This document shows, in pieces, positions 687 through 61,604 of a stretch of 64,000 bases of DNA. The translations under genes were made by a program, and so were the position numbers. The first letter of the stretch is position 1. Every line of letters starts with the position of its first letter. Origin of the DNA: Candidatus Pacearchaeota archaeon (lineage in GTDB: Archaea > Nanobdellota > Nanobdellia > UBA10117 > JABICX01); NCBI GenBank assembly GCA_017608025.1, contig JAFCGM010000002.1:6250-70249 (forward strand), given 5' to 3'. The notes under the pieces were generated by a model, which saw only the letters and a list, made by a program, of their open reading frames with translations, did no database searches and was not told the origin of the DNA.

Positions 687-1026
687 TTAGGAATACAAAC
701 AGTTTTTAGAGGAATTTGTAGTTAAAATCCTTCCAGGCTCGCTTGCCTGCAAAATCAGGCAGCACTTTAGTCGTATAGAGCTTCGCTGCATATAACTTTT
801 TTCTTTGGGCAAATTACTTTTTCTTTTTTAGAATGCGTAGCCGCCTTAGGCTCTGCCTTAATGGAGGTTCTTTTCCAAAGAAAGTCTAAAGAAAAGGCAA
901 AAGACCTTGAACTTGCTCTGCCTTTTTCAAAAAAAGGCAAGGTGCTAAAAAGCCATTTTGGAAAAAGCGCAAGCAGAAAAACAGGTTAATCTTGCTGAGC
1001 AGGAGTCTCTTCGCCAAAAGAACTAA

Positions 1027-4811: not shown

Positions 4812-4980
4812 TTTTTCTTGATTAATCTTCTTTTTTGAAAAGAAGATTATGCGGAGAGGAGGATTGTGTAACCCTGGGAATCCCCTTTCAAAAAGGGTCT
4901 TCCAACCTTCAAACGCATTGTGGATTGTTTTCTTGATTAATCTTCTTTTTTGAAAAGAAGATTATGCGGAGAGGAGGATT
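4812..4980. repeat. 53-bp direct repeat containing the tRNA-Leu 3' end and its downstream hairpin, flanking a 62-bp insert
   Basis: ttttcttgattaatcttcttttttgaaaagaagattatgcggagaggaggatt at 4812-4864 and 4928-4980. The insert carries the ccctttcaaaaagggtcttccaacc motif. Confidence 0.85.
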
Positions 4981-7430: not shown

Positions 7431-7710
7431 TAATATTTTTTGTTAATGTGTTGTGTTTATAAAGGTTTCCTTATTTTTTTAGAAAAAGGCAGATTGCCAA
7501 AAATTTGCTCTCTGAGCAAAAATATTTTTTTGACAATTTATAGTGCACAATCGCCTGCTGAAAGCTATTGCTCAAATATATATTTTTTCGCTCCCTACAT
7601 TCTACGCAATTATTCTCATTTTTTCTTTTTGGGCAACTTATAGTGTTTTTTTCTTTAAAAAAGAAAAACCCGCGCTAAAAAGAAACTACTTTTCTAAAAA
7701 GAAATGGCAG

Positions 7711-9571: not shown

Positions 9572-9603
9572 AATAAAAGATAAAAAAATAAGAATTAAAA
9601 AAA

Positions 9604-10265: not shown

Positions 10266-10360
10266 TTTATCCCTCCAAGAGCGGATAATTATAGCACAAA
10301 GAATTGATTTATAAAAGTATTGGTGGAAAATTTTAGATTATATTTTTAACAAACTGCTTT

Positions 10361-10729: not shown

Positions 10730-10808
10730 TTTGAAGTGAAAACCTTTTCAAAAGGACATTAATTTCTTTTGGCAACTTACCTTTTCTTTTCTAAAGAAAA
10801 GGCAGAGA

Positions 10809-12028: not shown

Positions 12029-12029
12029 T

Positions 12030-12473: not shown

Positions 12474-12514
12474 GTTCTATTTACTGACTTTTTTATATAT
12501 AATCTTTACCATTT

Positions 12515-12690: not shown

Positions 12691-12779
12691 TTTTTTTAGA
12701 AAAAAGCTTGCAAAAAACAAAAAAATAGTTTTTCTTTGGGAAACTTACACTTTCTTTTTTCTAAAAAGAAAGGGGAGAG

Positions 12780-14617: not shown

Positions 14618-14618
14618 T

Positions 14619-15122: not shown

Positions 15123-15871
15123 TAGTTTGCTCCGAATTTAACTTTTGACTTGTTTTGAATGTGAATTTTTGTTCCGCTTTTGAAAGCTTTTGCTAAAGCA
15201 GAAATAAAGTTTATTTTCTGCCTTGTTTGGCCACTTGATTTTGACCATATGTCTTTTATTCCTGCAAGCTCAAGAACTTTCTTAATTTCCTTGTCTACAA
15301 CAAGGCCTGTTCCTTTTGGAGCTGGCTTTAGAGTTATACTTACACTTGATTCTTTTCCAGATATTTTGAAAGGAATTGAATGCGGCTCTCCGCAAGTGCA
15401 CCGCCATGAACCGCATCCCCTTAAAATCTGAATCATATTAAGCTTTGCTTTTCGAATTGCTTTTTCCTTAGCTGGAAGAGTTTCCTTTGCTTTGCCAATG
15501 CCAATACCTATATAGCCGTTTCGATTTCCAACAATAGCCATTACAGAAAAAATAGGTTTGTTTCCTTCACGTGTTTTCTTTTGGGTTTGCCGGAAAATTC
15601 TTCTTTTTCCGCCCCCAAATTTTCCTTTTGCCTGACCAATTAATATAAAATCAACTTCAAGATTTGGAATTAAAAAATCAACAATTTCTGGCTCCATTAC
15701 TTTTTTTCCAGAATTCAGAATTTGGGAAAAATCAGTAATCTTTTTTTCCTTTACTTGTCTTCCTAATTCTGTTTTAGGATTCCATGCTTCAAGCTCTGAA
15801 AATGTGTCTTCTCGTTCTTCTTTGAAGGTTTTTTTCCTTCTTTGATTGTCTTGATTTTTTTTGTATGCCAT
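15122..15871 (-). CDS. rps5: Ribosomal protein S5 (uS5)
   Basis: S5 dsRBD and C-terminal domain sequence. Confidence 0.9.
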   Translation of the reverse strand: MAYKKNQDNQRRKKTFKEEREDTFSELEAWNPKTELGRQVKEKKITDFSQILNSGKKVMEPEIVDFLIPNLEVDFILIGQAKGKFGGGKRRIFRQTQKKTREGNKPIFSVMAIVGNRNGYIGIGIGKAKETLPAKEKAIRKAKLNMIQILRGCGSWRCTCGEPHSIPFKISGKESSVSITLKPAPKGTGLVVDKEIKKVLELAGIKDIWSKSSGQTRQKINFISALAKAFKSGTKIHIQNKSKVKFGAN

Positions 15872-16380
15872 TATTTTACTTTCTCTGAATTTATTTTATT
15901 CTTAACAGAATCTATATCCTTTGATAAGTCTTTTCCTGAAACTTTTGACAAAAGCTCGTCTGAAGGAAAGATTTTTTGATCATAATTAAGGGTTAAGCTT
16001 CCAAAATCTGAAACTCCTTTTATGAAAGCAAAAAGCTTGTTTCCCTTAGTTAGTGTGTAAAGTCCAAAATCAATGACTGCTTCGTTTATTTTGTTTTTCT
16101 GAGCTTTTTTTGCCAAAAGATAACCTGTTAAGTATGCTGCAGGTCTGTTTTTTATATTATGCTTCCAGCCATATTTTATTAGTTCTGAAGATGTGCAATT
16201 CACTTTTGTTACATCTCCATTCCTGCTATAATTGATTATTTGAGCAATAAATCTCTGGTTTGTTTTCCGGACAACTAATCTTGGCTTGCCTGATTTAAGG
16301 ATATTGAACCTCTTTGCATAGTTTGTTTTATTTTGCCTTCTTCTCCTGAATTTAACTGAATATCTTGGTCCGTTTGCCAT
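15871..16380 (-). CDS. rpl18: Ribosomal protein L18 (uL18)
   Basis: Conserved uL18 N-terminus. Confidence 0.9.
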   Translation of the reverse strand: MANGPRYSVKFRRRRQNKTNYAKRFNILKSGKPRLVVRKTNQRFIAQIINYSRNGDVTKVNCTSSELIKYGWKHNIKNRPAAYLTGYLLAKKAQKNKINEAVIDFGLYTLTKGNKLFAFIKGVSDFGSLTLNYDQKIFPSDELLSKVSGKDLSKDIDSVKNKINSEKVK

Positions 16381-16381
16381 A

Positions 16382-16840
16382 TTACTTGTCTTGCTTTTTC
16401 AAAAGATTGTGCTGCCTTATATAAAGATTAAGGTGCTTCTTGCTTCTGAAAAATCCTCCTTTTATTTTCAAATAAAGTTCTCTGTAAGTATCTTTCTCAA
16501 GCTGGTCTTTATTTTTCAGGTTTTTTAAAACTTTTCTTTGACTTCTAACTTTGTTTATCCATTTTTCTTTTGGCGGGGTTCTTGCGCCTCTTTTCCCTTT
16601 CTTGCTTGCAATTCCTCTTTGCCTTCCTTTCTTTTTAGCAAGTGCTGTTGCTCTTGCCCTGTGCCTTGATGTCCCTTTTTTAGGAACTACTGTAATAATC
16701 TGTTCTTTTATTAAAGAGATTATATCACTTTTTGTTATTGCCTGCTTTACTTGCTCTCTTCCTTCTGGAGAAATCTTTACTCGGTTTTTACTTGTGTTTG
16801 CAACTTGAGAAGCAAGTTTCTTTTGGAGTTTTAGTTTCAT
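16382..16840 (-). CDS. rpl19e: Ribosomal protein L19e (eL19)
   Basis: MKLKLQKKLAS...TSRHRAR signature. Confidence 0.9.
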   Translation of the reverse strand: MKLKLQKKLASQVANTSKNRVKISPEGREQVKQAITKSDIISLIKEQIITVVPKKGTSRHRARATALAKKKGRQRGIASKKGKRGARTPPKEKWINKVRSQRKVLKNLKNKDQLEKDTYRELYLKIKGGFFRSKKHLNLYIRQHNLLKKQDK

Positions 16841-17619
16841 TTCTTATTATTCTCCTTTTTGCTATCTTGTGTTTTTGGTTTGTTTTTTGTTTCAGGCTTT
16901 TTTGATTCTGATTCTTTAGTTTGTTTGTTTTCTTTGTTAGGGGCGGTTTCTTTTGCTACAGTCCTTCTGCTGAAGGGACCCACAGCAGTGCTATCTTCGC
17001 CTGGCTCGATATCACTTTTATTTTCTTTGTTAGGGGCGGTTTCTTTTGCTGCTTTTTTTATTTTGGACAAAATCTCCTGCTTTTTCTTTTCATCAATTTT
17101 TTTCTTCTTTTTAATATCTGCAACTTCCTTGTCTTTTTTCTTCAGCTCTTCTTGTCTCTTTTTTTTCTTTTCTGCTTTTTCTTTTTTCTGCTTCTTTCTT
17201 TTTTCATAAGACTCTTTTATTTTCCTTATTTCAGAGTCAAGGTTTCTTATGTTTGAAAATGATATTTTTTTGCTTTTTGCTTTTTCGAGAATTTCAAGGC
17301 GTTTCTTGCTTCCTATTTTTGAAGACAAAATTGCGAAATTTTTCTCTGGATTGAAGTTTTTTAAATCATTGTGATTTTCAACTCTAAAAGGAGTTTTTCC
17401 TTCTTCATTTGCATGCCTTAGAATTGAAATTGTTTTGAATCCAATTGAAACCATCTTTGGTTTTCCTCGTCTTCTAAGCCTTAATTTTGACTGAACTCCG
17501 CGAGGCTTTCTCCACTTTGTTCCAAGCCGTTTTCTCCTGTGAGATTCCTGCCTTTTGAATTCTGGCATTTTCTTTTTTATTTTTTTCTTCTGCTTGGAAA
17601 GTTCTTTTAATGATTTCAT
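16837..17619 (-). CDS. rpl32e: Ribosomal protein L32e (eL32) with ~140-aa K/E-rich C-terminal tail carrying an in-frame repeat-element insertion
   Basis: eL32 core (RRKRLGTKWRKPRG...) followed by a low-complexity tail. Tail contains ...EDSTAVGPFSRRT... flanked by an exact 30-bp duplication. Confidence 0.85.
   Translation of the reverse strand: MKSLKELSKQKKKIKKKMPEFKRQESHRRKRLGTKWRKPRGVQSKLRLRRRGKPKMVSIGFKTISILRHANEEGKTPFRVENHNDLKNFNPEKNFAILSSKIGSKKRLEILEKAKSKKISFSNIRNLDSEIRKIKESYEKRKKQKKEKAEKKKKRQEELKKKDKEVADIKKKKKIDEKKKQEILSKIKKAAKETAPNKENKSDIEPGEDSTAVGPFSRRTVAKETAPNKENKQTKESESKKPETKNKPKTQDSKKENNKK
16958..17020 (-). repeat. Family-A short element (63 bp), in frame inside the eL32 tail
   Basis: gtccttCTGCTGaagggacccaCAGCAGtgctatcttcgcctggctcgatatcac, flanked by exact 30-bp direct repeats (16928-16957 / 17021-17050). 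Confidence 0.85.
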
Positions 17620-18149
17620 TGTATTTTCCTCTTATTCTTTTCAATCATATATATTCCATCCTGGAATATTCTTCTATCTTTTTTGCTCAGTCGAGTAAGA
17701 CTTTCAATTTTTGAAGCAAAATTTCCTGCTTTTTCAATTTCATGAGATTTAACTGTAATTATGTCTTTTTGGATTTCAATATTTATTCCTTGAGGAATAG
17801 TTATTTTTCTGATGTTTTTTGAGCCAATAAAATTTGAAACAGATAACTCATTTCCTTGAACTTTTACACTCATTGGAAAATGGCTTGAGCATACTTTAAG
17901 TTTGTATTCAAATTCCTCTTCAACACCCTTGAGCATGTTTTTTATATGTGAAGCAAATGTTCCAATAATTGCTTTGTTTTTTGCTGTTTTTTCAATAGGA
18001 AGTATTTTAATTTTGTTTTCCTGTTTTTTAATATGAATCCTTCGAATAGGATACGTCTTTTCAAGTGTTATTTTATCATTAGAAACAATTATTCTATTGC
18101 CTTCTATAGAAATGTTCTTGTCTTGCGGAATCTCTACTTCATCAATCAT
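17616..18149 (-). CDS. rpl6: Ribosomal protein L6 (uL6)
   Basis: Two-domain uL6 sequence. Confidence 0.9.
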   Translation of the reverse strand: MIDEVEIPQDKNISIEGNRIIVSNDKITLEKTYPIRRIHIKKQENKIKILPIEKTAKNKAIIGTFASHIKNMLKGVEEEFEYKLKVCSSHFPMSVKVQGNELSVSNFIGSKNIRKITIPQGINIEIQKDIITVKSHEIEKAGNFASKIESLTRLSKKDRRIFQDGIYMIEKNKRKIQ

Positions 18150-18150
18150 T

Positions 18151-18543
18151 TTAGTATACGTATGCTATAAGAACGCCTCCTGAATTTTCATCTTTTGCTT
18201 GAAAATGTGTTAAAAGACCTTTTGGAGTTGAAACAATAAGTCTTCCAAAATTAACTGCTGGTAGATATCTTGTCTCAAACTTCTCAAAATCATCAACACT
18301 AACTGAGAATCTTGGCTTTATGACTCCAATATTATTTATAGCATGGGACAATTCTATTTTCAAAACTCCGCCACGTGAATCTTTGTTAAACTTATAGTTT
18401 GAAATATATTTTTCCTTTTTGAGAATTTCGCAAATTTTTATAAGCAATTTTGAAGCTGGAGCTACTTCTATGTTCTTTTTTCCTGCTTTTTCAGCATTCT
18501 TTATTTTTGAAAGCGCGTTTGCAATTAAATCGTTTGATGACAT
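18151..18543 (-). CDS. rps8: Ribosomal protein S8 (uS8)
   Basis: MSSNDLIANALSKIKNAE... conserved uS8 sequence. Confidence 0.9.
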   Translation of the reverse strand: MSSNDLIANALSKIKNAEKAGKKNIEVAPASKLLIKICEILKKEKYISNYKFNKDSRGGVLKIELSHAINNIGVIKPRFSVSVDDFEKFETRYLPAVNFGRLIVSTPKGLLTHFQAKDENSGGVLIAYVY

Positions 18544-18546
18544 TTT

Positions 18547-18765
18547 TTACCTCAATTTTTTAAATCCTAATTCCTTTGCAACTTCTCTGAAACATCTTCT
18601 ACAAATGTTCAAATTGTATTTGCTTAAGTGACCTCTTTTTCCTCCGCACATTCTACATTTAGAAAGTGCTTGACCAAATTTTCGATTTTTAGGAGAGTTA
18701 TTTCTAAGAAACCTTTGTTTTTTCGTCTTTCCTGGAATTATTTTGTCTATGCCTATTTTTTTCAT
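18547..18765 (-). CDS. rps14: Ribosomal protein S14 (uS14, Zn-binding type)
   Basis: CRMCGGKRGHLSKYNLNICRRCFRE zinc motif. Confidence 0.8.
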   Translation of the reverse strand: MKKIGIDKIIPGKTKKQRFLRNNSPKNRKFGQALSKCRMCGGKRGHLSKYNLNICRRCFREVAKELGFKKLR

Positions 18766-19274
18766 TTAACTTCAACTCCCAACTCTTTTTTAGCAAAAGA
18801 TATTGAATCTTCTTTTAATATTTTATGCTTTTTAGAAATTTTTGATTTTATTTTTCTCTTTTTTATTCTAAATCCAGGTCTCTCAAGAGTAACGCAAACA
18901 TCTAGTCCTTTCATTCCAATGTCAACATCATACTTGAATCCTGGTATATCTATATATTCTGAAACTCCAAATGCAAAACCATTTTCATCAAAGCAGGACT
19001 CTGGAAGAGTGTTTTCCCTTGCTTGAAGGAGCTTCTTTAATACTTCTTCTGCTTCTTTTCCTCGCAAAGTAAGTTTTGCTCCAATAGGCATTCCTGGTCG
19101 TATATTAAAAGTTGGAACTCTTTTCTTAGCAAGGCATTGAATAGGTTTTTTGCTTGAAAACTTTGAAAGCAATTTTATTGCTTTTTTGCAGTTCTTTTCA
19201 TCATTGCCAGTTCCCATATTTAGAACTACTTTTTCAATTCTTATTTTGCGCATAGGGTTTTCTTTTTCTTCCAT
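18762..19274 (-). CDS. rpl5: Ribosomal protein L5 (uL5)
   Basis: uL5 sequence. Confidence 0.9.
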   Translation of the reverse strand: MEEKENPMRKIRIEKVVLNMGTGNDEKNCKKAIKLLSKFSSKKPIQCLAKKRVPTFNIRPGMPIGAKLTLRGKEAEEVLKKLLQARENTLPESCFDENGFAFGVSEYIDIPGFKYDVDIGMKGLDVCVTLERPGFRIKKRKIKSKISKKHKILKEDSISFAKKELGVEVK

Positions 19275-19275
19275 T

Positions 19276-19992
19276 TTAATTCAACTTTATTGCTGGCTTG
19301 TCTTTTCCAACAACAATAACATTTTTCAAATCAGCTTCAGATAAATTTCCTTTTTCATCTTTTGCTATGGCTATTTTTTGCTTTTTCAATATTCCTTTTT
19401 CAGTGATTTCTTCTAGTTTGGCAGTGCTACCTACTTTTTTTCCACCAAAAAAATACAGCAAGCTTCCTTTTTTAAGAGGAAGGGTTTCTTGCTCTTTTCT
19501 TTTTTCTGAATCATAAACAACTACGTCGCCTGTTTTGTAGTTTCCTTTGCTTACTAAAATGTTCCATCCATTCATGAAATTAAGCTGAATTTTTCCTTTT
19601 TTTATCTTTGACTTGTTTTCAATTCTAAGCAAAAGTATTTTTGCTTCTTTTTCTGGAATTTCTATGAACTTGAATTTTCGATTTTTTCCAATAACAACTC
19701 TGTAGTGCTTATTTATTTTTGGAAAAGAAATTACATCAAAAAGCCCTACTGGGAAATTTATTTCTTTTATTGAACGATTGTTAACAATAACTTCTTTATT
19801 GTAAATCAAATATTTAGCTCGTTTTCTTGAATCTGAAATTTTTAGGATTTCTGTTAAAATAACTGAAAGAGGCATTGAAGTTAATATGTTATGTGTTCCA
19901 GCAATAGGTTTTGCTATCCATTTTATTCCTTTCCTTTTTATTGGCCATGCTTTTGGTGCATTAAGCCTTGATAGATGTTGTTTCTTACTCAT
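19276..19992 (-). CDS. rps4e: Ribosomal protein S4e (eS4)
   Basis: MSKKQHLSRLNAPKAWPI... eS4 N-terminus. Confidence 0.9.
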   Translation of the reverse strand: MSKKQHLSRLNAPKAWPIKRKGIKWIAKPIAGTHNILTSMPLSVILTEILKISDSRKRAKYLIYNKEVIVNNRSIKEINFPVGLFDVISFPKINKHYRVVIGKNRKFKFIEIPEKEAKILLLRIENKSKIKKGKIQLNFMNGWNILVSKGNYKTGDVVVYDSEKRKEQETLPLKKGSLLYFFGGKKVGSTAKLEEITEKGILKKQKIAIAKDEKGNLSEADLKNVIVVGKDKPAIKLN

Positions 19993-20515
19993 TGTTTTTT
20001 CCTCCTTTTGAATCAGTTTTTACTGGCTTTATTGTTTTTGTTGATGATTTTTCAATTGCTTGCTTTCTTGTCCTTCCAGCGAAGGGACCCACGCTGGCGC
20101 TATCTTCGCCTTTGGCTCGATAGCTCTTAGATTGTGATGATTTTTCAATTGCTTGCTTTCTCTTCTTGTCAGATAAATCAATATCAATTATTTGAACATT
20201 TGAAGGAGATATTGGGTATTTAATTACTCGGCCTTCTTCTTTTTTGAATTCTGCTTTTCTGACAAAGATTTTGCTCTTTTTTAGAGACACTTTTTCAACT
20301 TCTCCAATCAATCCTTTGAATTGGCCTCTAAGGATTTTTACCTTGTCTTTAACTCGAATTGGAATGTTTCTTGTATTGTATTTTTTTCGCAAATCTTTTG
20401 AAAGTAAAGCAGACATAAACTTTCTTTTTACATGAAGCGGAGAATTGAATCGATATTTCCTCTGCTTTCTAGGCTGTTTGCTTGACTTCCATTTTTTAGA
20501 CCAAAGAGTTTTCAT
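19985..20515 (-). CDS. rpl24: Ribosomal protein L24 (uL24, KOW) with C-terminal tail carrying an in-frame repeat-element insertion
   Basis: KOW motif KVKILRGQFKG. Tail contains ...EDSASVGPFAGRT... flanked by an exact 27-bp duplication. Start taken at MKTLW. Confidence 0.85.
   Translation of the reverse strand: MKTLWSKKWKSSKQPRKQRKYRFNSPLHVKRKFMSALLSKDLRKKYNTRNIPIRVKDKVKILRGQFKGLIGEVEKVSLKKSKIFVRKAEFKKEEGRVIKYPISPSNVQIIDIDLSDKKRKQAIEKSSQSKSYRAKGEDSASVGPFAGRTRKQAIEKSSTKTIKPVKTDSKGGKNNE
20069..20134 (-). repeat. Family-A short element (66 bp), in frame inside the uL24 tail
   Basis: gtccttCCAGCGaagggacccaCGCTGGcgctatcttcgcctttggctcgatagc, flanked by exact 27-bp direct repeats (20042-20068 / 20135-20161). 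Confidence 0.85.
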
Positions 20516-20520
20516 TTTGA

Positions 20521-20925
20521 TTATAACATTATGCTTGCTGTTTTTGCCACCTGAGACCATCGATATGCAACTTCTTTTGCAATCGGACCTTTAATTAAAG
20601 TACCTTTTGGTGTTCCCAAACGAACATCACGCAAAACAATTCCTGCATTGTCCTCAAATTTAACTTTTGTTCCGTCAGGTCGGGAATATTCCTTTTTTTG
20701 CCGGACAATAACGACAGGAACAACTTGGTGCACCATGTCTGGCTTTCCTGCCTTAACAGCAACAGTAACCAAGTCAGAAACGCCTGCAGAAGCAAGCTTT
20801 CTTGTTCTTGTCTTATAACCGCGAACAGAGATTATCTGTCCAAGTCTTGCTCCTGAATTATCTGCTATGTTAATTACAGTTCCCAAAGGCATGCTTTTTG
20901 ATATTCTTGTTTTTACTGATTTCAT
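20521..20925 (-). CDS. rpl14: Ribosomal protein L14 (uL14)
   Basis: MKSVKTRISKSMPLGTVINIADNSGAR... uL14 sequence. Confidence 0.9.
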   Translation of the reverse strand: MKSVKTRISKSMPLGTVINIADNSGARLGQIISVRGYKTRTRKLASAGVSDLVTVAVKAGKPDMVHQVVPVVIVRQKKEYSRPDGTKVKFEDNAGIVLRDVRLGTPKGTLIKGPIAKEVAYRWSQVAKTASIML

Positions 20926-20936
20926 TTTTTGTCCTC

Positions 20937-21090
20937 TGTCCTTCTGCTGAAGGGACCCACAGCGGTCGTGTAAAGCTTTGCTTCACACAACGGTTTAACT
21001 CTAGTGACTGTCCTTCTGCTGAAGCCACTCATAGCAGTGCTATCTTCAGAAACAAAGTTTCCTTGATAACAGGTATTTAGCATTATAGGA
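20937..21090 (-). repeat. Two tandem family-A elements (A3a 20937-21008, A3b 21009-21090) inserted at the S17 stop / L14 start overlap
   Basis: Flanked by 26-bp direct repeats ttcattttttgtcctctgtccttctg (20921-20946 / 21091-21116) that each contain the ATGA overlap. Confidence 0.8.
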
Positions 21091-21091
21091 T

Positions 21092-21463
21092 TCATTTTTT
21101 GTCCTCTGTCCTTCTGTTTATTGAATCTATTTTTTCATATACAACAAATTTCTTTGTTTTGGAAATTGGCCTGCATTCTGCAATTTTAACTATATCTCCT
21201 TTTTTTGCATTGATATGTTCTGGAAGATGAGCTTTGACTTTTGAGCTTCTTTTTTCATATCTTTCATATTTTGGAATTTTAATGTGCCTTGACCACTTTA
21301 CTGTAACAGTTTTCATCATTTTGTCAGAAACAACTGTTCCTGTAAAGACTCTACCTCTCAGAGGTATGCTTATTTTTGGAGATTTATTATTTTTTTCCAA
21401 TTCATTCACCTTTTGCTTGGTTTTCTCGTGTTTTTTCATTTTTTTATTTTGAGCCGATCCCAT
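21092..21463 (-). CDS. rps17: Ribosomal protein S17 (uS17) with Lys-rich N-terminal extension
   Basis: uS17 OB-fold core. C-terminus ...NRRTEDKK. Confidence 0.85.
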
Positions 21464-21708
21464 GGTCTTTTTTCAATTTCTTCTCCATTTATTTCGACTT
21501 TTTCTTTTGATGGAAGAGTTATTTTAAGAGTTATGTTTTTTTTAAACAGTCTCTTAACTTTGTTTTTTGTTTTTATTTGAAGCGTATGATATGTTTCATT
21601 TACAATCTTGCCTTTTAATCCAAGATTGCACTTGTTTTTTGCCGCTGAAATTTCAGCATTAAGGCCAATTAGTTCGTGCCTTTGAATGTTTTGCTTTGTT
21701 ATTGGCAT
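21436..21708 (-). CDS. rnp1: RNase P protein component 1 (Rpp29/Pop4-like)
   Basis: Small Sm-like basic protein. Sits at the conserved archaeal position between SUI1/L29 and S17. Confidence 0.6.
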
Positions 21709-21709
21709 G

Positions 21710-22015
21710 TTATTTTATTTCAATGCTGTCTTCATTATATCCTAGCTGTATCAAGACTTCCTTTACACGATGCTTTTGGTTTCCTTGAAGTTCAATCACC
21801 TTGTCTTTTATGGTTCCACCGCAAGCAAGTTTTTGCTTTAGTTTTTTTGCAAGATCCTTTGCTTCTTTTTCTTCTGAAACTCCTTCAACAAGAGTTACAG
21901 GCTTTCCATATCTTCTTTGTGTAAGACGAATAGTTATTGTTGCTTGCTCTTTTGCAATTGTTTTGCACATGCAAAGATCTTTTGGAAGTCCGCAGACCGG
22001 ACATATGTCAGTCAT
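21710..22015 (-). CDS. Translation initiation factor SUI1 (aSUI1/eIF1)
   Basis: SUI1 domain ...TLVEGV...KLACGGT... with an N-terminal CPVCG...CMC zinc knuckle. Confidence 0.85.
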   Translation of the reverse strand: MTDICPVCGLPKDLCMCKTIAKEQATITIRLTQRRYGKPVTLVEGVSEEKEAKDLAKKLKQKLACGGTIKDKVIELQGNQKHRVKEVLIQLGYNEDSIEIK

Positions 22016-22221
22016 TATTTGTTTTTTACCTCCGTATTTTTTATGAACATTAACCTAGCAATAGTTTTTCGTATCTCACGAATTCTCCCGGCATTTTCCG
22101 GAGTTGCTCCAGCACTTATTTGGGAATTCAGCTTAAGTACTTCTTTTCGCAATTCCTCTATTTTTGAATCAATTTCCTTTGAACTCATTTTTCTTGCATC
22201 TTTTGCTCTGATTATTGCCAT
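22015..22221 (-). CDS. rpl29: Ribosomal protein L29 (uL29)
   Basis: MAIIRAKDARKMSSKEIDSKIEELRKEVLKL. The 14 upstream codons in the ORF track are the repeat element, not protein. Confidence 0.85.
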   Translation of the reverse strand: MAIIRAKDARKMSSKEIDSKIEELRKEVLKLNSQISAGATPENAGRIREIRKTIARLMFIKNTEVKNK

Positions 22222-22303
22222 TGTCCTTCTGCTGAAGGGACCCACAGCAGCTCTACCGAGCAAAGCTCGATAGCGCGAATGGATTCCTTAGTTTTTTTCC
22301 TCC
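22222..22303 (-). repeat. Family-A full-length element (A4) occupying the whole S3-L29 junction
   Basis: Minus-sense: GGAGGaaaaaaaCTAAGGAAtccatTCGCGCTATCgagctttgctcggtagagctgctGTGGGTCCCTTCagcaGAAGGACA then ATG. Its first 16 nt encode the S3 C-terminus and stop. Confidence 0.85.
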
Positions 22304-23124
22304 TTTTTAGATTTGGGTTTTGATTTTTTGGTTTTTTCTTCAGATTTCTTTTCTTCTTTTTTTGTTTCTGATATTTTTGCTGGTTTTGATTTTTCTTTCT
22401 CAACTTCCTTAGATTTTGCTGATTTTGCTGATTTTGCTGATTTTTCAGCTTGATTTTCAGCTTCTTTAGCAGAGATTTCCTCTTTTGAAATGAGGTTTCC
22501 TTTTTCATCTACCTCTTCAACATGAATTGTTTTGAACTTGACTTTGTCTGGAAGCGGAGTATTTGGAAGCATTATCTTAACTTTAATTCCAACTGCTCCG
22601 GACTTTGTATTTGCAACCATTGTTGCTGAATCAACAAGGTCTTGAGCTACATGTCCACATTTCTTCATATATCCATTATAAAATCTCCAAACCCGGGATC
22701 TCTGGCTTGGAACTTTTCCAGATATTTTTATTTCGCAACCCATTGCTCCTGCTTTCATTACATTTGAAAGGCTGTTATATGAAATAGGTTTAAATCTTCG
22801 GATTCCGAAATTTTCAAGTTTGAATAATATGTTTCTTGCAATTACTTTTGCATTTAAGTTAGGTTCCTGAATTTCACGAACTTCTATTTGAGGATTTTCA
22901 AGCTTAAAAGTATTTTTTAGTATTTTTGTTAGGTCTTTAATTGTTTCTCCGCCCCTTCCAATTATTAATCCAGGTTTTACTGCTTCAATAATTACTTTTT
23001 CTCCAAGAGGTGTTTTTTCAAAATAAATTCCTCCAATTCCTGCTCTGGAACTTATTCTGCTTTCTATTTTGTTCTTTATATACAATTCATTAATCTTGTT
23101 TTTAATAAATTCCCGCTCTATCAT
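22288..23124 (-). CDS. rps3: Ribosomal protein S3 (uS3) with K/E-rich C-terminal tail
   Basis: KH domain GRGGETIKDL. The last 5 codons and the stop lie inside repeat element A4. Confidence 0.9.
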   Translation of the reverse strand: MIEREFIKNKINELYIKNKIESRISSRAGIGGIYFEKTPLGEKVIIEAVKPGLIIGRGGETIKDLTKILKNTFKLENPQIEVREIQEPNLNAKVIARNILFKLENFGIRRFKPISYNSLSNVMKAGAMGCEIKISGKVPSQRSRVWRFYNGYMKKCGHVAQDLVDSATMVANTKSGAVGIKVKIMLPNTPLPDKVKFKTIHVEEVDEKGNLISKEEISAKEAENQAEKSAKSAKSAKSKEVEKEKSKPAKISETKKEEKKSEEKTKKSKPKSKKEEKN

Positions 23125-23606
23125 TTCTTAACCTCTTTTTTATTGGTTTTTTCTTCTTTCTTTTTTCCTGTTTTTGACTCAATCACAACTTCAAAATGTG
23201 CTATTTTCCTTTTTCTGCCTCTGTGCCTTCCATAGTGCCAAGAGGTTGGTCCTTTTTGCGCAGAAGCGTGAATTATAATAAGGTCTTTTTCATCAAATCC
23301 TTTTTCAAGTGCATTTGAAACTGCAGCATACACTACTTTTTTTATTTCATGCACTGTTTTGACAGGATATCTTCCTGTTGCTATTTTTCCTCTTCGATGA
23401 GGTATGCTTTTGTAAAACTTTTTGTAAGGCACAGGCATTTTCTTTTCAAGAATCCAGTCCAGCTCTCTTTTAACTCTCTTTATTTCTTTTCCTTTCAAAA
23501 AATTAGCAACTTCAATAGCCTTTTTTCTTGATATTGGCAAGTTAAGGCCTACTGCTCTAGCCATTCTTTCTTTGTTGAATTCCTGAAATACATAATTGTA
23601 TGCCAT
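23121..23606 (-). CDS. rpl22: Ribosomal protein L22 (uL22)
   Basis: uL22 sequence. Confidence 0.9.
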   Translation of the reverse strand: MAYNYVFQEFNKERMARAVGLNLPISRKKAIEVANFLKGKEIKRVKRELDWILEKKMPVPYKKFYKSIPHRRGKIATGRYPVKTVHEIKKVVYAAVSNALEKGFDEKDLIIIHASAQKGPTSWHYGRHRGRKRKIAHFEVVIESKTGKKKEEKTNKKEVKK

Positions 23607-23684
23607 TGTCTTTAAAGCAAAGGACTTGCGCGGGCTCTACCGAGCAAACTCGATAGCGCGAAAGTTCCTTAGTTTTTTGCCTCC
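23607..23684 (-). repeat. Family-A variant element (A5) between S19 and L22, abutting the L22 ATG
   Basis: GGAGGcaaaaaaCTAAGGAACTTTCGCGCTATCgagtttgctcggtagagcccgcgcaagtcctttgctttaaagaca then ATG. Confidence 0.75.
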
Positions 23685-23703
23685 TTTTTAAGATATTTCA
23701 TTT

Positions 23704-24099
23704 TTACTTTACACTTAATGCTTTGGAACCTTTTGTTGCTCCGATTCCTGGAGCTTTATGAGATACTTCTTTTCTTGTTCTTACAAATTCACCGATTCTG
23801 TGACCGGTTTTTTCTGCGTCAAGCTCCACTGTTAAGAACTCTTTTCCATTGTAAACAAGAAGCTTAACTCCAAACAAATCTGGAGTTATTATTAAATCTC
23901 GAACATGAGTTTTGATTGGCTTTGGATTACTTTGCTCTTTTCTTTTCTTGATTTTTTCAATTAATTTTTTCTGCTCAGGAGTATAGCCTCTTTTCAAAGA
24001 TCGCCTTGCTCTTGAATCAAGAAGCTGCATTATTTCCTGACGGGTTAACTTAACAAGTTCCTCTTCTGTTTTTCCTTTGAATTTGAATACTTTTGCCAT
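23704..24099 (-). CDS. rps19: Ribosomal protein S19 (uS19)
   Basis: ...GKEFLTVELDAEKTGHRIGEF... uS19 signature. Confidence 0.9.
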   Translation of the reverse strand: MAKVFKFKGKTEEELVKLTRQEIMQLLDSRARRSLKRGYTPEQKKLIEKIKKRKEQSNPKPIKTHVRDLIITPDLFGVKLLVYNGKEFLTVELDAEKTGHRIGEFVRTRKEVSHKAPGIGATKGSKALSVK

Positions 24100-24180
24100 T
24101 GTCCTTCTAACAAGTTCTTTGTTTGCTAGCCTCCATTATTATTTTTCTATTTATCATTTTTTTACTTGCCGCGTCCTGCT

Positions 24181-24240
24181 CCCTTTTCTTTAGAAAAGAA
24201 AAGGTAAGTTTCCAAAAGAAACTTTTTTGAGCATTGTTAT
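24181..24240. repeat. Family-E palindromic element inserted between L2 and S19 with ~30-bp target duplication
   Basis: cccttttctttagaaaagaaaaggtaagtttccaaaagaaac, flanked by tatcatttttttacttgccgcgtcctg at 24151-24177 and 24243-24269. Confidence 0.75.
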
Positions 24241-24251
24241 CTATCATTTTT

Positions 24252-24965
24252 TTACTTGCCGCGTCCTGATTTTTTAGCTGAAAGCATTCCAACTTTCTGT
24301 CCTGGTGAACGTCCTTTTCTTCTTACAGTTGTTGATGTAGGTCTGTGCCTTCTGTGCGTTCCACCGTGTGGGTGGTCAACTGCGTTCATTGCAACTCCTT
24401 TTACTTTTGAAACAAGCTTGTTTTTTGCTTTTCTTTTGTGGTATGAGTTTCCAGCCTTTATTAAAGGCTTGTTTTTAACTCCAACTCCTGCAACTACTCC
24501 AAGAGATGCATAGCATTCTGGATTTAGTTTTATTTGCCTTTTTGAAGGCATCTTAATTACAATATTTTTCTTTTCTTTTGCAACCAATATTCCAGAAGCT
24601 CCTGCTGCTCTCAAAAGCTTTCCATTTTGTCCTGGAACTTTTTCTATGTTGAAAACTCTTGCTCCGATAGGAATGTCTTTCAAAGCAATTGCATTTCCAA
24701 CTGAAGAGTCTTTTCCTCCATAAAAAACTGTTTGTCCAACTTTGATTCCCATTGGTGCTGGAAGCAAACACATTTGATCATCTTCATATTTTACTATCAT
24801 TAGTGGAGCTGAGTGTCCTACAGAGTTTACAATATCAATAACCTCCCCCTGAAGTATTTCTTTGGACTTAATTGGGTAACGAATTTCTCCAAAATAACGG
24901 TGGCTTGGAGACTTATATCTAGGTGAGCCTTTTCCTCTTCTTTGCGTAATAAGCCTTTTTCCCAT
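24252..24965 (-). CDS. rpl2: Ribosomal protein L2 (uL2)
   Basis: uL2 sequence with a GGTHRRHRP-type C-terminus. Start taken at MGKRLITQRRGKG. The 11 upstream codons in the ORF track are the repeat element. Confidence 0.9.
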   Translation of the reverse strand: MGKRLITQRRGKGSPRYKSPSHRYFGEIRYPIKSKEILQGEVIDIVNSVGHSAPLMIVKYEDDQMCLLPAPMGIKVGQTVFYGGKDSSVGNAIALKDIPIGARVFNIEKVPGQNGKLLRAAGASGILVAKEKKNIVIKMPSKRQIKLNPECYASLGVVAGVGVKNKPLIKAGNSYHKRKAKNKLVSKVKGVAMNAVDHPHGGTHRRHRPTSTTVRRKGRSPGQKVGMLSAKKSGRGK

Positions 24966-25074
24966 GTCCTTCTCGCGAAGGGACCCACTCAGCCGCAAAA
25001 TCGGCTGGCGCTTTCATCAGGCAGATGTTGGTCTGATGCCTGATAGCGCGAAAGTTCCTTAGTTTTTTGCCTCC
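24966..25074 (-). repeat. Family-A long element (A6, 109 bp) between L23 and L2, abutting the L2 ATG
   Basis: GGAGGcaaaaaaCTAAGGAACTTTCGCGCTATCaggcatcagaccaacatctgcctgatgaaagcgccagccgATTTTGcggctgagtGGGTCCCTTCgcgaGAAGGAC then ATG. Confidence 0.85.
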
Positions 25075-25099
25075 ATTATTTTTATCATTATTCTTCTCC

Positions 25100-27922: not shown

Positions 27923-28096
27923 TTATATACTATAATATATAAATAAATTATAATTTTTATTTAAAAAAGTTACTATTTAGGAGTAACACTGCTTTTTCTT
28001 TTGCAAAGAAAAGGTAAATCGATAAAAGAAGCAAATTATTCTTTTTTCAGAAATAGTTTTCTCTAATTTTCAGCCAGCGCTTTTTCTAAAGAAAAA

Positions 28097-28396: not shown

Positions 28397-28562
28397 GGTT
28401 TTCCTAAAAAGCCTATTCTAATTTAAAAGTGTTTCTATAGAAAAAAATAGAACACTAACTATAATATGTAAAAAAAGTAAGTATCACAAATTGTCAAATC
28501 CATAATTATATCTGCTACAGGATTTATTTTACTTTAAAAAGTGTTTGTATTCCCAAAGCTTT

Positions 28563-28656
28563 CTTAGAAAGAAAGCTTGCAAAGAACAACATTTTTCTTA
28601 GAAAGAAAGCTTGCAAAGAACAACATTTTTCTTAGAAAGAAAGCTTGCAAAAAATT
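28563..28656. repeat. Tandem repeat, 34-bp unit x ~2.8, each unit a palindrome (gctttctt-aga-aagaaagc)
   Basis: cttagaaagaaagcttgcaaagaacaacattttt repeated head-to-tail. Confidence 0.85.
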
Positions 28657-28714: not shown

Positions 28715-28889
28715 AATAGCTCTTTTTCTTTTCGAGAACATTTTCTTTTTCAAAAGAAAAGGTTCAAGCGAGCCCGGAGGGATTCGATTACCTCGGCAAA
28801 CCCTTTAAAAAAGTGTTTGCATTCCCAAATGTTTTTTTCGAGCGAAGCGAGACTTTTTAGCAACTTGCCTTTTTTTGAAAAAGGCAGAG

Positions 28890-29052
28890 CGAGCCCGGAG
28901 GGATTCGAACCCTCGATCTACAGCTAACTCCAGCACATTAAAGTCTTTTAGCTTATCTTTGCAGGCATCGCATTTTGTTTGCCTGCTCAAAGCGCCAGCC
29001 AATTTTGCGGCTGTAGGAGGCTGTCGCCCTATCCAGACTAGGCTACGGGCCC
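28890..29052 (-). tRNA. tRNA-Arg(CCT) with 88-nt intron at 37/38; the intron carries a family-A repeat module
   Basis: Acceptor GGGCCCG/CGGGCTC. Anticodon stem ACAGC/GCTGT with loop CTCCTA^A. T-arm GAGGG-TTCGAAT-CCCTC. Intron contains CAGCCG-CAAAAT-TGGCTG plus a long stem. Confidence 0.65.
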
Positions 29053-29753: not shown

Positions 29754-30221
29754 TTTTTTGTGATTTCAAAAATCAGCAAAATTCATTAGAAAAAATTTCA
29801 TTAAAAAAGCAGTAGCGCCTGAGAAGATTTGAACAGAACCCCTTTAAAAAAGGGTCTTCCAACCCCAAAAACTGATTGAAGCTAAAAAAGCAAGATTAAA
29901 AAGTGTGATTTTGTTTTTTCTTAATCTAAAACTGAGTTCATTATCTTTTCAAGTTGTAAAATCATGACTGGGTTGAGGTCCTTCTTCAATGTATAGTCTT
30001 ATCATTTCATCTTGTGATTTTTTAATTAAATTAAAGAGTTTATTATTTTTCTCATAGATATTATTTTGTTTTAATTCTATAAACGAATGTGTTATATAAA
30101 GTTTAAAAAGTTAATTAAATTATATAAAAAAGAATCTTTTTAAAATATCTAAACAATACTTGCATTCCAAATATTGTTTTTCTTTGGGCAACTTGCACTT
30201 TCTTTTTCTAAAAGAAAGGGC

Positions 30222-30340
30222 AGCGCCTGGGGAGATTTGAACTCCCGACATCTTGCTTTCTCGTTTTTTCTGTTAATATTTTTGCGCGAAGCAGAAACGA
30301 GTTACGAGGCAAGCGCTCTACCAGACTGAGCTACAGACGC
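30222..30340 (-). tRNA. tRNA-Thr(CGT) with ~46-nt intron
   Basis: Acceptor GCGTCTG/CAGGCGC. D-arm GCTC-AGTCTGGTA-GAGC. Anticodon stem CTTGC/GCAAG with loop CTCGTAA. T-arm GGGAG-TTCAAAT-CTCCC. Confidence 0.75.
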
Positions 30341-32096: not shown

Positions 32097-32206
32097 TGTA
32101 TTATAAAAATATATATAATGGTTTATATAATTTGTTGAAAAAATTTCTAAAAGTTTCATCAAAAATAAAAGGAAATATTTATAAATCGCATATTTTACTT
32201 AGATTT

Positions 32207-32317: not shown

Positions 32318-32370
32318 TTTTTAGAAAAAGCGGCTAGGACTGCGTCTAAGGCGGCTACGCCTTCTGCGGA
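32318..32370 (-). ncRNA. Candidate small RNA or conserved element, family D copy 2
   Basis: Second copy of the family-D 53-mer, directly after the 5S terminator. Followed by the palindrome gaaacttttggaaaaagtttc also found at the tRNA-Leu 5' flank. Confidence 0.3.
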
Positions 32371-32459
32371 AACTTTTGGAAAAAGTTTCATCAAAAACAG
32401 AATCATATTTTTACATTATCTCTTTTCCATATTGATTTTAGTTAAGATTCTTTAGTGCA

Positions 32460-32540
32460 GTCCTTTTAGCTAAGAGACCCACGCTGGCGACAAACATTGG
32501 TTATGAAAAGTCGCATAAGCTCTTAAATTATTTCTTTTTC
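32460..32540 (-). repeat. Degenerate family-A element flanked by diverged ~30-bp direct repeats
   Basis: gtccttttagctaagagacccacgctggcg... between attgattttagttaagattctttagtgca and atgttaattttaactaagactctttggtgca. Confidence 0.5.
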
Positions 32541-46860: not shown

Positions 46861-46914
46861 TACACAATAACCTCGATTATTACTCTTATTAATGAGTAAT
46901 GTATGTACCAGTCC

Positions 46915-49748: not shown

Positions 49749-49873
49749 TTTTTCTCCTTATTTTCAATTACTTTTAAAGAGTATTTAAAAGCTTTTCTCT
49801 CCCTTTTCTTTAGAAAAGAAAAGGTAAGTTTCCAAAAGAAAACAATTTTAACTCTTACCAATAATTTATTTCC

Positions 49874-52328: not shown

Positions 52329-52505
52329 CTTTAAATCTGCTGGCTTTTCTTTTAGAAAAAGAAAACCTAAGTTGCCAAAAGAAAACTAATTAATTCTGAA
52401 AGAATAACTTTAAATCTGCTGGCTTTTCTTTTAGAAAAAGAAAACCTAAGTTGCCAAAAGAAAACTAATTAATTCTGAAAGAATAACTTTAAATCTAGTG
52501 AGTGT
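52316..52505. repeat. 85-bp direct repeat x2.2 that begins inside the Rpp21 stop region; each unit contains a family-E element
   Basis: gaaagaataactttaaatctgctggcttttcttttagaaaaagaaaacctaagttgccaaaagaaaactaattaattct x2, plus a third 20-bp partial. Confidence 0.85.
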
Positions 52506-60053: not shown

Positions 60054-60149
60054 GTACTATCCTAAAACTCTCAGTTAAAAAAACTTTGTTTACTTCAGAA
60101 GAGTGCTTTATTAAGGTACTAGCTAACTTTTCCTTTTGGAAAGAAAAAG

Positions 60150-61604
60150 TTAACCTTTTACAACAACAAAAGGAATTAATCGAGCTACTTTTTTCGCAAT
60201 TCCTGTTTCATGCATAACTTTTATTACTTCCTCAACATCCTTGTACGCTTGCGGTGCTTCCTCAAGCAGTCCTTTTTTGTCGTGGCTGAGTACAATTATG
60301 TTTTTGGATTTCAACTCTGCTGTTAATGACTGGGAGTTTATTTTTCTTTTTGCTGCGTTGCGAGAGAGAATGCGGCCAGCTCCGTGGCATGCTGAGCCAA
60401 ATGTTTCATCCATTGCTTTTTGAGTTCCCTTAAGAATGTAAGAAGCAGTTCCCATTGTTCCTCCAATTAAAACAGGTTGTCCGATTTCTCTGTATTTTTC
60501 TGGAATTTCAGTTCTGCCCGGTCCAAAAGCGCGAGTTGAGCCTTTTCGATGGACAAGAATTTTTTTGGTTTTTCCATTTATAGTGTGCTCTTCAATTTTG
60601 GCAGTGTTGTGCGCAACTTCATAAAGAGTTTTTATTTTTTCAGGCTTTAAATTGAAAGCTTGTGCAAGAGTTTTGCGTGCAAGATGAGCAATAACCTGCC
60701 GGTTTGCAAATGCGCAATTTATTCCGGCCTTAACTGCAGAGAAATACTTTTTCCCTTCTGGAGAATTTATTGGAGCACAAACCAACTCCTTGTCTGGAAT
60801 TTTGATTTTGTATTTTCTAACTGCTTTTGCAAGGTCTTTTGTGTAATCCATTCCAATTTGATGCCCCAGGGCTCGGGAGCCGCAGTGAAAAGAAATTAGC
60901 ACCTGATTTTCCTTAATTCCATAGGCTTGTGCTGCTTTTTTATCAAAAATTTTATCAACCACTTGCAGTTCAATATAGTGATTTCCAGAACCAAGAGTTC
61001 CTGTTTGGGAAAACTGGCGCTGCTTTGCTCGCTGGGAAACTGCTTTTGGGTCTGCTCCTGAGATTTTGCCGTTTTCCTCAATAAATTCAAGGTCTTGTTT
61101 TATTCCATAACCTTTTTTTATTGCAAATTCAGCACCTTCAACAAGAAGATTATCAATTTCATTTAAAGAAAGCTTAATTTTTCCTCCAACACCCAAGCCT
61201 GCAGGAATATTGTCATAAAGCAGTTTGGCAATTTCCTTTTCTCGGCCATTAAAATCAGATTTTTTAAGAGGTGTTGCCATTGTGCGAACGCCGCAATTTA
61301 TGTCAAAACCAATGCCACCCATTACAATTACGCCTTTTTCCAAGTCAAATGCTGCTACTCCGCCAATTGGAAATCCATAACCCACATGAATATCTGGATT
61401 TGCAATTACTGGCTTTTCAACTCCAGGCAGTTTTGCTATGTTCTTTAATTGCTGAAGAGAGTTCCATTCTGAATTTTCACTATTTAGCAAGCTCTTGATT
61501 TTCCTGCTAGCGTAAATCCTAGCTGGAACTGCCATTTTCTCTTCCTGGAACTCCCAGACATGTTTTCTTATTTGTTTCATCTTTCCACATCTTTGGTTTT
61601 TCAT
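60150..61604 (-). CDS. rtcB: RNA-splicing ligase RtcB (tRNA ligase)
   Basis: GYGFPIGGVAAFD, DINCGVR, HCGSRALGH, HNTAK and GTM motifs. Confidence 0.9.
   Translation of the reverse strand: MKNQRCGKMKQIRKHVWEFQEEKMAVPARIYASRKIKSLLNSENSEWNSLQQLKNIAKLPGVEKPVIANPDIHVGYGFPIGGVAAFDLEKGVIVMGGIGFDINCGVRTMATPLKKSDFNGREKEIAKLLYDNIPAGLGVGGKIKLSLNEIDNLLVEGAEFAIKKGYGIKQDLEFIEENGKISGADPKAVSQRAKQRQFSQTGTLGSGNHYIELQVVDKIFDKKAAQAYGIKENQVLISFHCGSRALGHQIGMDYTKDLAKAVRKYKIKIPDKELVCAPINSPEGKKYFSAVKAGINCAFANRQVIAHLARKTLAQAFNLKPEKIKTLYEVAHNTAKIEEHTINGKTKKILVHRKGSTRAFGPGRTEIPEKYREIGQPVLIGGTMGTASYILKGTQKAMDETFGSACHGAGRILSRNAAKRKINSQSLTAELKSKNIIVLSHDKKGLLEEAPQAYKDVEEVIKVMHETGIAKKVARLIPFVVVKG

Follow-up and report, generated by a model that had tools for sequence, protein, structure and literature searches.

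A repeat family at gene boundaries

The archaeal stretch analysed in this work (contig JAFCGM010000002.1, positions 6,250 to 70,249; 64 kb, referred to throughout as the window and numbered from its first letter) has a GC content of ~33% and contains a ribosomal-protein/secY cluster, 5S rRNA, five tRNAs, two of them with long introns, Rpp21, RtcB and ThrRS. A search with secY groups it with the Woesearchaeota (DPANN). Within the L2-S19 gene run lies an inserted unit flanked by two copies of the end of the L2 gene, and the core of this unit belongs to a short repeat referred to here as family E, which is real and recently inserted. The repeat measures 45-60 bp and has the consensus 5'-X-GGGCAACTTACA-Y-loop-P-GGGCAG-3', where X and Y are pyrimidine tracts and P is a purine tract. 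The alignment comprised 36 copies, being the window copies together with ~27 distinct copies from metagenome contigs. Genome-side counts cover the window, all sequences beyond it (given L numbers of three digits) are metagenome contigs, and the E copies compared across contigs are not phylogenetically independent.

Allowing at most one mismatch, GGCAACTTAC occurs nine times in the window against 2.5 expected, a count reached in none of 100 shuffles, and for the palindrome pattern 11 occurrences compare with an expectation of 1.4. A family profile gave nine strong matches (27.8-47.4 bits) and one truncated copy (17.5 bits), and the sequences at 24179-24221 and 49799-49841 are identical over 43 nt. 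The original prediction had proposed about 10 copies of the element at gene 3' ends. The family holds up, with 10 copies and one short variant in the window (Table 1), but two of the sites listed do not: the hairpin at 60115-60160 has neither the GGCAAC linker nor the upstream tract of a member, and of the two copies assigned to tRNA-Ser, that at 7621-7668 is full while 7669-7710 is only a degenerate end fragment. Placement at gene 3' ends is correct for several copies; however, that at 49799-49844 lies between divergent genes and that at 24179-24224 inside the L2-S19 gene run. The targeting of tRNA boundaries, the constant polarity of the duplications, the tripled secY end, the short variant at tRNA-Arg and the second family at tRNA-Leu, all described below, had no part in that prediction. 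No Rfam family covers E, and the literature search returned no paper matching it, the linker sequence matching only unrelated primers.

A predicted intrastrand triplex

Tract statistics were calculated from 31 parsed copies with 20 distinct P types. The pyrimidines of Y and the purines of P form a Watson-Crick hairpin of 8-16 bp that is perfect in nearly all of these copies, with C-G to T-A exchanges in the arms and arm lengths that vary in step. The pyrimidine tract X, upstream of the hairpin, is neither a direct nor an inverted repeat of the arms; it complements P in parallel sense, and as such is the mirror image of Y, and the lengths of all three tracts covary. In 24 of the 31 copies this parallel complementarity is exact over the entire P tract (7-16 nt), a number reached by none of 10,000 shuffles in which X was exchanged between copies. 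When shifts of up to 3 nt were allowed, the parallel fit was superior to an antiparallel or direct-repeat fit in 16 copies and inferior in none, the 15 ties involving mostly symmetric tracts. The mirror direction of X is settled because of asymmetric copies, the clearest being that of L099, in which X (TTTCTCTTTTTCTTTT) fits P (AAAGAGAAAAAGAAAA) at 16 of 16 positions. Perfect three-tract motifs with at least seven triads number 12 in the window, compared with 0.03 per dinucleotide shuffle, and three in the 1.3 Mb of the 80 other Woesearchaeota loci that were surveyed for motifs and profile matches.

We know of no copying process that has mirror repeats as its product, and Hoogsteen pairing is the known reason for them. 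With X parallel to P, and Y and P forming a hairpin, the X-to-P strand could form a pyrimidine-motif intrastrand triplex in which X occupies the major groove as T.A-T and C+.G-C triples. GCAACTTAC, previously taken for a separate box, is instead the linker of the three-tract motif, and could connect the Hoogsteen and Watson-Crick pyrimidine strands of the predicted triplex. The conserved feature of E is probably its structure, and not a protein-coding or terminator function.

Target duplications of constant polarity

Nine insertions were found with 16-32-nt duplications of the target. Those in the window are at L2 (27 nt), Rpp21 (22 nt, twice), secY (19 nt), tRNA-Arg (21 nt) and tRNA-Leu (16 nt), and the remainder are on L105 (31 nt), L107 (21 nt) and L095 (20 nt). 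The duplicated piece is always gene-terminal, corresponding to the 3' end of the gene in eight cases and to the 5' end in L095. The order of the parts is constant, with a target copy followed by a variable donor stretch of 10-170 nt, the core with its GGGCAG end, and a second target copy that touches the GGGCAG end. That the element duplicates its target, as originally proposed, is upheld by these intact flanking duplications. At the L2 locus the flanking sequence is a perfect 27-nt direct repeat, the copies of which lie at 24152-24178 and 24242-24268 rather than at 24151-24177 and 24243-24269 as first reported. The duplication at Rpp21 is equally real and measures 22 nt (52317-52338, 52396-52417 and 52475-52496) instead of the 20 nt given before; here a perfect 79-nt unit present 2.3 times consists of two identical 57-nt inserts between three 22-nt target copies.

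Repeated insertions at a single terminus stack, as seen at Rpp21, tRNA-Arg and tRNA-Leu. The last 21 nt of tRNA-Arg are duplicated (28767-28787 and 28888-28908), as are the last 16 nt of tRNA-Leu (4850-4865 and 4965-4980), each of the latter abutting the purine end of a copy of a second three-tract family. The secY end is present three times (12569-12587, 12668-12686 and 12780-12798). Downstream of secY, a perfect 70-nt repeat at 99-nt spacing (12518-12686) contains in each copy a hairpin module, GGAGCTTTTTTGAAAAGCTCC, and a duplicate of the secY end, a composition which indicates that at least two kinds of module are stacked there. On L105 (1011-1167), the insertion of E, with a 31-nt duplication, lies immediately ahead of a protein gene's stop codon; it has displaced this stop and the final codons, and the working copy ends with four new codons derived from the insert (GDNR). 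Arrest of a reverse transcriptase at a modified T-loop base was considered as the determinant of duplication length and rejected, given that it fits tRNA-Leu, where the duplication starts at position 58, and not tRNA-Arg, where it starts at 55.

The multiple copies, intergenic location, lack of coding sequence and flanking direct repeats of E would also suit a miniature inverted-repeat transposable element (MITE) of the classical type, mobilized by a DNA transposase whose gene lies elsewhere in the genome, and a DDE transposase gene is present in the window at 41951-42937. Such an identity is very improbable. The element, which begins TTTTCTTTGGG... and finishes ...GGGCAG, has no terminal inverted repeats, and across the alignment the ends TTTTCTTTGGGCAAC... 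and ...GGGCAG are not mutual inverted repeats. Only one of its ends is precise, the other being variable, families whose linkers are unrelated show the same behaviour, and the duplications (16, 19, 20, 21, 22, 27 and 31 nt) differ in length, unlike the fixed short stagger of a transposase. Derivation of E from the DDE insertion sequence of the window itself was rejected, its ends being unrelated. The combination of a precise end, a variable end and a variable duplication length fits polar copy-choice and not a transposase-driven MITE. These features match those of a target-primed retroposon, with a precise 3' end, a variable 5' end and a duplication of variable length, and all duplication-bearing insertions share one polarity.

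Integrase att sites typically show direct repeats of tRNA 3' ends, which here measure 21 and 16 nt, and it has been documented that elements integrate into archaeal tRNA genes and that this is linked to tRNA disruption (PMC3293823). The duplicated gene ends could on these grounds be leftover att sites of tRNA-targeting integrase elements, with E as a remnant. This explanation is hardly credible, as the same structure occurs at the ends of L2, Rpp21, secY and 5S rRNA and at a gene start, the repeat in each case being the target's own sequence. Furthermore, the inserts measure merely 57-170 nt, and no integrase was found among the window open reading frames (ORFs) scanned with Pfam.

Empty sites and distribution in relatives

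Four matching sites are empty in the two nearest relatives. In L001, the best species representative by secY (82% identity), which is syntenic with the window over 7688-24632, these are the L2-S19 spacer and the secY end, downstream of which no E is present. In L123/L124, a closer relative recovered by a search with L2 (80% L2 identity), they are the L2-S19 spacer and the end of TFS, L123 being without the ~96-nt block that ends in the E copy at 27987-28034. The L2-S19 spacer of the window, which contains E and the duplicate, measures 152 nt; the spacer of L001 has 2 nt and that of L123/L124 has 12 nt. By profile search E is essentially absent from the 80 related Woesearchaeota loci, and likewise from L123. 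The sequence of E, including the linker, is nevertheless conserved in contigs that range from 27% to 48% GC and share only 37-54% protein identity with the window, and this patchy yet conserved distribution suits a spreading element. Together, the identical 43-nt copies, the intact flanking duplications and the four empty sites in the closest relatives support the earlier claim that the element proliferates. Viral contigs, plasmids and phages were searched, and neither an E copy nor a mobile carrier was identified among them. Within the region syntenic with L001, the ~1.2 kb at 10323-11535 of the window, comprising a YdjM-like gene, E and PPIase, has no counterpart in the ~160 nt of L001 at 12761-12921.

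Placement at tRNA boundaries and in canonical tRNA introns

The P-GGGCAG end is a precise terminus, located 0-2 nt from a tRNA 3' end, a tRNA 5' end, the beginning of a canonical tRNA intron, the 3' end of 5S rRNA, or a start or stop codon. Among the 27 distinct metagenome copies, seven lie at tRNA 3' ends and three at tRNA 5' ends, one follows 5S rRNA, and five open canonical tRNA introns. In every boundary case the P-GGGCAG end faces the gene, and as the gene is always met by the same end, copies that precede a tRNA and copies that follow one are oppositely oriented. Within the window this end is found at the tRNA 3' terminus, after the discriminator base, for tRNA-Thr and tRNA-Arg, with a fragment only at tRNA-Ser, and it also follows the stop codons of PPIase, secY and Rpp21.

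Inside introns, E is located at the 5' splice site (37/38) of the canonical introns called by ARAGORN in L094 (tRNA-Thr and tRNA-Glu), L093 (tRNA-Thr), L086 (tRNA-Ser) and L115 (tRNA-Leu). Rfam matches confirm the identity of the 5S rRNA and of most tRNAs, four of the five with introns among them. E makes up only the 5' part of each intron, the remainder being specific to each tRNA, and is always in one orientation there, opposite to that upstream of tRNA 5' ends. When an E-containing tRNA was folded, the anticodon stem was paired and E formed an internal hairpin. In the window, tRNA-Arg(cct) (28890-29052, minus strand) has an 88-nt intron and tRNA-Thr(cgt) (30222-30340, minus strand) a 45-nt intron, both without E, whereas the intron of the L093 counterpart of the latter is 86 nt long and begins with E. 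Modules with unrelated linkers take the same positions, one being inside a tRNA-Ser(cga) intron and one 2 nt upstream of tRNA-Val. That such modules act alike points to structure, and not to a sequence-specific enzyme, as the determinant.

Archaeal transcription terminates at U-tracts, and E could be a boundary element selected by the host, one that ends transcription at oligo-T in both directions, or insulates, where genes are highly expressed (tRNA, 5S rRNA and ribosomal-protein genes). Selection would then hold E in place, with the duplications arising from replication slippage at a structured sequence. Both strands do begin with T-rich tracts, a pair of convergent genes has one copy between them, further copies are 0-3 nt past the PPIase and secY stop codons or directly after tRNA discriminators, and modules with different linkers occupy the same type of position, as a convergent function predicts. 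Despite this, we consider the explanation unlikely. Five independent copies are inside canonical tRNA introns and at least three are in tRNA 5' leaders; both locations need read-through, and a pure terminator role is unlikely as a result. Of the window copies, one occupies the promoter region between divergent genes and one the interior of the L2-S19 gene run, and the matching gene ends in relatives manage without E. The T runs of both strands are only 3-5 long (T3-T5) and broken by C, and neither the conserved linker nor the mirror tract has a role in termination. Partial, two-way pausing by E is plausible, and the terminator hairpin at 3' ends that was initially suggested would be at best a secondary property.

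The three copies at tRNA 5' ends bear on a different explanation, in which the working form is RNA and genomic spread is secondary. The X-to-P transcript would make a U.A-U triple helix guarding the 3' end ...P-GGGCAG, for example in a leader that RNase P cuts off a tRNA, on the model of MALAT1/mascRNA. These three copies and one module of another family end 0-2 nt before the tRNA 5' end, so that RNase P would leave exactly that 3' end. According to the sections of PMC4666352 drawn on here, the order of Hoogsteen tract, pyrimidine tract and purine tract is the sole such order reported to form in RNA. The same source holds that the purine-type triplex of the opposite strand is unable to form in RNA, and most copies are oriented such that the transcript of the neighbouring gene carries that opposite strand. 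In addition, the T-tracts of X and Y might halt the polymerase ahead of P, and we regard an RNA working form as improbable. Two further identities were rejected: a promoter, in that no conserved part of E keeps a constant distance from the tRNA 5' end when stem length changes and the loop shows no conservation, and a C/D-box or H/ACA guide RNA, the boxes of which are missing as judged by eye.

Proposed mechanism of spread

On balance, we favour somewhat the interpretation of family E as a small, non-coding, structure-driven copy-and-insert element that could form a triplex within one strand, any terminator activity being secondary. In the mechanism envisaged, a polymerase, either a DNA polymerase or a reverse transcriptase, would copy a donor element. 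On completion of P the new strand would snap into the triplex and eject the polymerase from its template. Synthesis would restart on another template at or near an end, where a short stretch would be re-copied to give the duplication. Should the process be carried by a reverse transcriptase, the templates would be processed leaders, trailers and introns, which would naturally carry exactly the GGGCAG terminus. With T-rich tracts leading on both strands, a copy at a gene end would probably cause pausing or partial termination of transcription, and this may help such copies to be tolerated there without being what the element is built for. A more far-reaching proposal is that three-tract modules in general form a transposase-free class of archaeal mobile element, spread by ejection of a polymerase or reverse transcriptase at a precise point and restart of synthesis at the terminus of some other abundant RNA or gene, and that the same process plants the modules at 37/38 and so creates or enlarges tRNA introns; this is put forward tentatively and is, taken whole, rather doubtful.

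Several observations weigh against these interpretations. The triplex is inferred from the symmetry of the sequence alone, and the tracts are close to mirror-symmetric, so half of the copies allow X to be read as a direct repeat of Y or as an alternative hairpin partner of P. The Gs following X and those following P match by identity rather than complementarity, which a simple pyrimidine-motif triplex does not account for. Microhomology of 2-4 nt is present at some junctions and none at others, leaving the template-switch step without direct support. Among the scanned window ORFs, Pfam revealed no reverse transcriptase, the only recombinase being the unrelated DDE transposase. The proximity of E to stop codons may merely reflect the very short spacers of this genome, and the perfect 79-nt tandem count could be an artefact of short-read assembly, tandem copy numbers being dependent on the assembly.

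Fresh insertions retain their target duplications, which makes the process accessible to step-by-step study. For genome annotation, the modules produce pseudo-copies of gene ends and can rewrite C-termini, as in L105.

Features of the window

Coordinates of the family E copies, of the related modules and of the other features are given in Table 1.

Table 1. Positions of family E, other three-tract modules and additional features in the window.
Feature	Position	Strand	Remarks
Inserted unit at the L2 locus	24179..24241	-	63 nt; parts follow in minus-strand order
5' extension of the unit	24241-24222	-	variable; 20 nt
E core, X	24221-24214	-	TTTCTTTT
E core, linker	24213-24203	-	GGAAACTTACC
E core, Y	24202-24195	-	TTTTCTTT
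E core, loop	24194-24192	-	
E core, P	24191-24184	-	AAAGAAAA
E core, tail	24183-24179	-	GGGAG
27-nt duplication, distal copy	24152..24178		last 5 codons of L2, stop and 9 nt; adjoins core tail end
27-nt duplication, copy continuous with working L2 gene	24242..24268		stop codon 24252-24254
Truncated E copy	799..831	+	X, linker and Y kept; without purine arm P; 17.5 bits
Full E copy	7621..7668	+	downstream of tRNA-Ser (tRNA on minus strand)
Degenerate E fragment	7669..7710	+	ends AAAAAGAAATGGCAG; directly after tRNA-Ser discriminator base
E copy	10760..10805	+	between convergent YdjM-like gene (+) and PPIase (-); tail 3 nt from PPIase stop
E copy	12728..12777	+	tail 2 nt from secY stop; flanks are secY-end copies 12668-12686 and 12780-12798
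E copy	27987..28034	-	diverged linker ATCGATTTAC; between TFS and next gene; 3' part of ~96-nt insertion
Short E variant	28855..28890	+	linker GCAACTTGCC, 8-bp hairpin, GGCAGA tail; abuts 3' end of intron-containing tRNA-Arg
E copy	30176..30223	+	tail overlaps last 2 nt of intron-containing tRNA-Thr(cgt)
E copy	49799..49844	-	between divergent L37ae and Dph2 genes
Two identical 57-nt insertions stacked after Rpp21	52339..52474	-	E cores 52340-52387 and 52419-52466
Second three-tract family, two copies	4813-4849 and 4928-4964 (span 4813..4980)	+	TTTTCTT-GATTAATC-TTCTTTT-TTG-AAAAGAA; other linker
Third three-tract module	28725..28760	+	linker CGAGAACA; purine end 6 nt from outer tRNA-Arg-end copy
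Plain A/T-rich hairpin	60115..60160		after RtcB stop codon; not family E
DDE transposase gene	41951-42937	-	Pfam DDE_Tnp_1; candidate imperfect 20-nt inverted repeats 41841-41860 and 43192-43211, unrelated to E
~80-nt family	16959-16989, 20068-20098, 20936-20966, 21007-21047, 22221-22306, 23652-23687	-	
~80-nt family, further copies	24964-25077, 32458-32488, 46909-46939, 54278-54318, 56119-56201	-	

The Dph2-like ORF next to the E copy of the divergent L37ae-Dph2 region (49874-50566) encodes only 230 aa and matches its Pfam profile from position 64 onward, with E ~30 nt upstream of the start codon; the gene may be missing its N-terminal part.

Other repeats are present alongside family E. A second repeat family of ~80 nt on the minus strand reads, in gene direction, ...AAGGAACTTTCGCGCTATCGAGC-loop-GCTCGGTAGAGC, followed by the hairpin CTGCTG-TGGGTCCCTT-CAGCAG and AAGGACA. 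The start codon is directly next in several copies (L2, ThrRS and two ribosomal-protein genes) and other copies are within called ORFs. This family has no Rfam match and could be a leader or processing structure. A plain hairpin family, GGAAACTTTT-loop-AAAAGTTTC followed by ATCAAAAA, is found at 5044-5078, 29773-29807, 32131-32165 and 32363-32397, one copy adjoining the tRNA-Leu 5' end and one lying ~45 nt after 5S rRNA. On L107 (9106-9225), several plain hairpins and E are located together between two copies of the 5S rRNA end. A perfect 34-nt unit (TTTCTTAGAAAGAAAGCTTGCAAAGAACAACATT) is repeated 2.7 times at 28560-28651, with a related single copy at 12691-12724. The ABC-type ATPase gene at 36787-39009 (minus strand) is split by an intein that carries a LAGLIDADG homing-endonuclease domain.

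Comparison with known systems

As small, non-coding, interspersed hairpin repeats that often form intergenic mosaics, the copies of E resemble MITEs and the repetitive extragenic palindromes and bacterial interspersed mosaic elements (REP/BIME). E differs from these in having no terminal inverted repeats and no fixed short duplication, and in possessing a third, mirror-image tract; no partner transposase or REP-associated transposase for it was seen in the window. Target-primed retroposition of the type used by short and long interspersed nuclear elements (SINE/LINE) also produces one precise end, one variable end and duplications of variable length. E has no poly(A) tail, however, its duplicated segment is always a gene terminus, and the window ORFs scanned include no reverse transcriptase. 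We know of no reverse transcriptase that acts in a target-primed manner in archaea.

Triple helices of RNA are formed by the element for nuclear expression (ENE) with an A-rich tract in MALAT1, PAN RNA and transposon RNAs of plants and fungi, in which a Hoogsteen U-tract is followed by a Watson-Crick U-tract and an A-rich 3' tract. The order of tracts in E is the same, and a few E copies would obtain their 3' end from RNase P at a tRNA. Unlike the ENE, E is archaeal and has no flanking clamp stems, and most of its copies are oriented against formation of an RNA triplex.

The closest described kind of element is the bacterial intrastrand triplex motif, represented by PIT elements, BoxC and TMECO (Hoyne et al. 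2000; Holder et al. 2015, PMC4666352). As characterized in the parts of these sources used here, PIT, BoxC and TMECO are, like E, short multi-copy intergenic repeats with three consecutive purine or pyrimidine blocks per strand and short spacers, in which stems are kept more than loops; they likewise occur in both orientations and have no associated transposase. They have been linked to local genome rearrangement, and the same parts describe their function as not known. Under the classification of PMC4666352, in so far as it is drawn on here, the X-to-P strand of E would be a class IV pyrimidine motif and its complement a class II purine motif. E has the three-block layout and the mirror-type third block and no homology to the BoxC/TMECO consensus, and judged by these features it appears to work like the intrastrand triplex motifs without being a member of the BoxC/TMECO family. 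TMECO as presented there is proteobacterial and G/C-rich (CCCTCNCCC...GGGNGAGGG...GGGNGAGGG) and has no sequence in common with E. In Escherichia coli it has no specific spacing to neighbouring ORFs, and the parts used describe neither tRNA association nor target duplications. E, in contrast to TMECO so described, is A/T-rich and archaeal; its linker of 11-12 nt is conserved, one of its termini is precise, and the gene-end duplications that accompany it are long. If the triplex is real, intrastrand triplex repeats, described so far in bacteria, would extend to archaea, and E would add to them a measurable behaviour in the form of its precise terminus, polarity and gene-end targeting.

The nearest biological parallel, to judge from a summary in a 2014 review (PMC4090602), is provided by the transposed tRNA introns of the Thermoproteales, where near-identical sequences occur in the introns of different tRNA genes (Fujishima et al. 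2010). This near-identity indicates that introns were gained by copying, and the summary gives the mechanism of tRNA intron transposition as not known. The comparison made there, as summarised, was between intron sequences only. E may bear on the gain and movement of archaeal tRNA introns in that it places one short sequence in introns, leaders, trailers and protein-gene ends, and the transposase-free spread of such modules, if true, would explain in concrete terms how tRNA introns transpose. Relative to the Thermoproteales introns of that account, E is found in addition in tRNA trailers and leaders and at the ends of 5S rRNA and protein genes, where its insertions are marked by duplications and a constant polarity.

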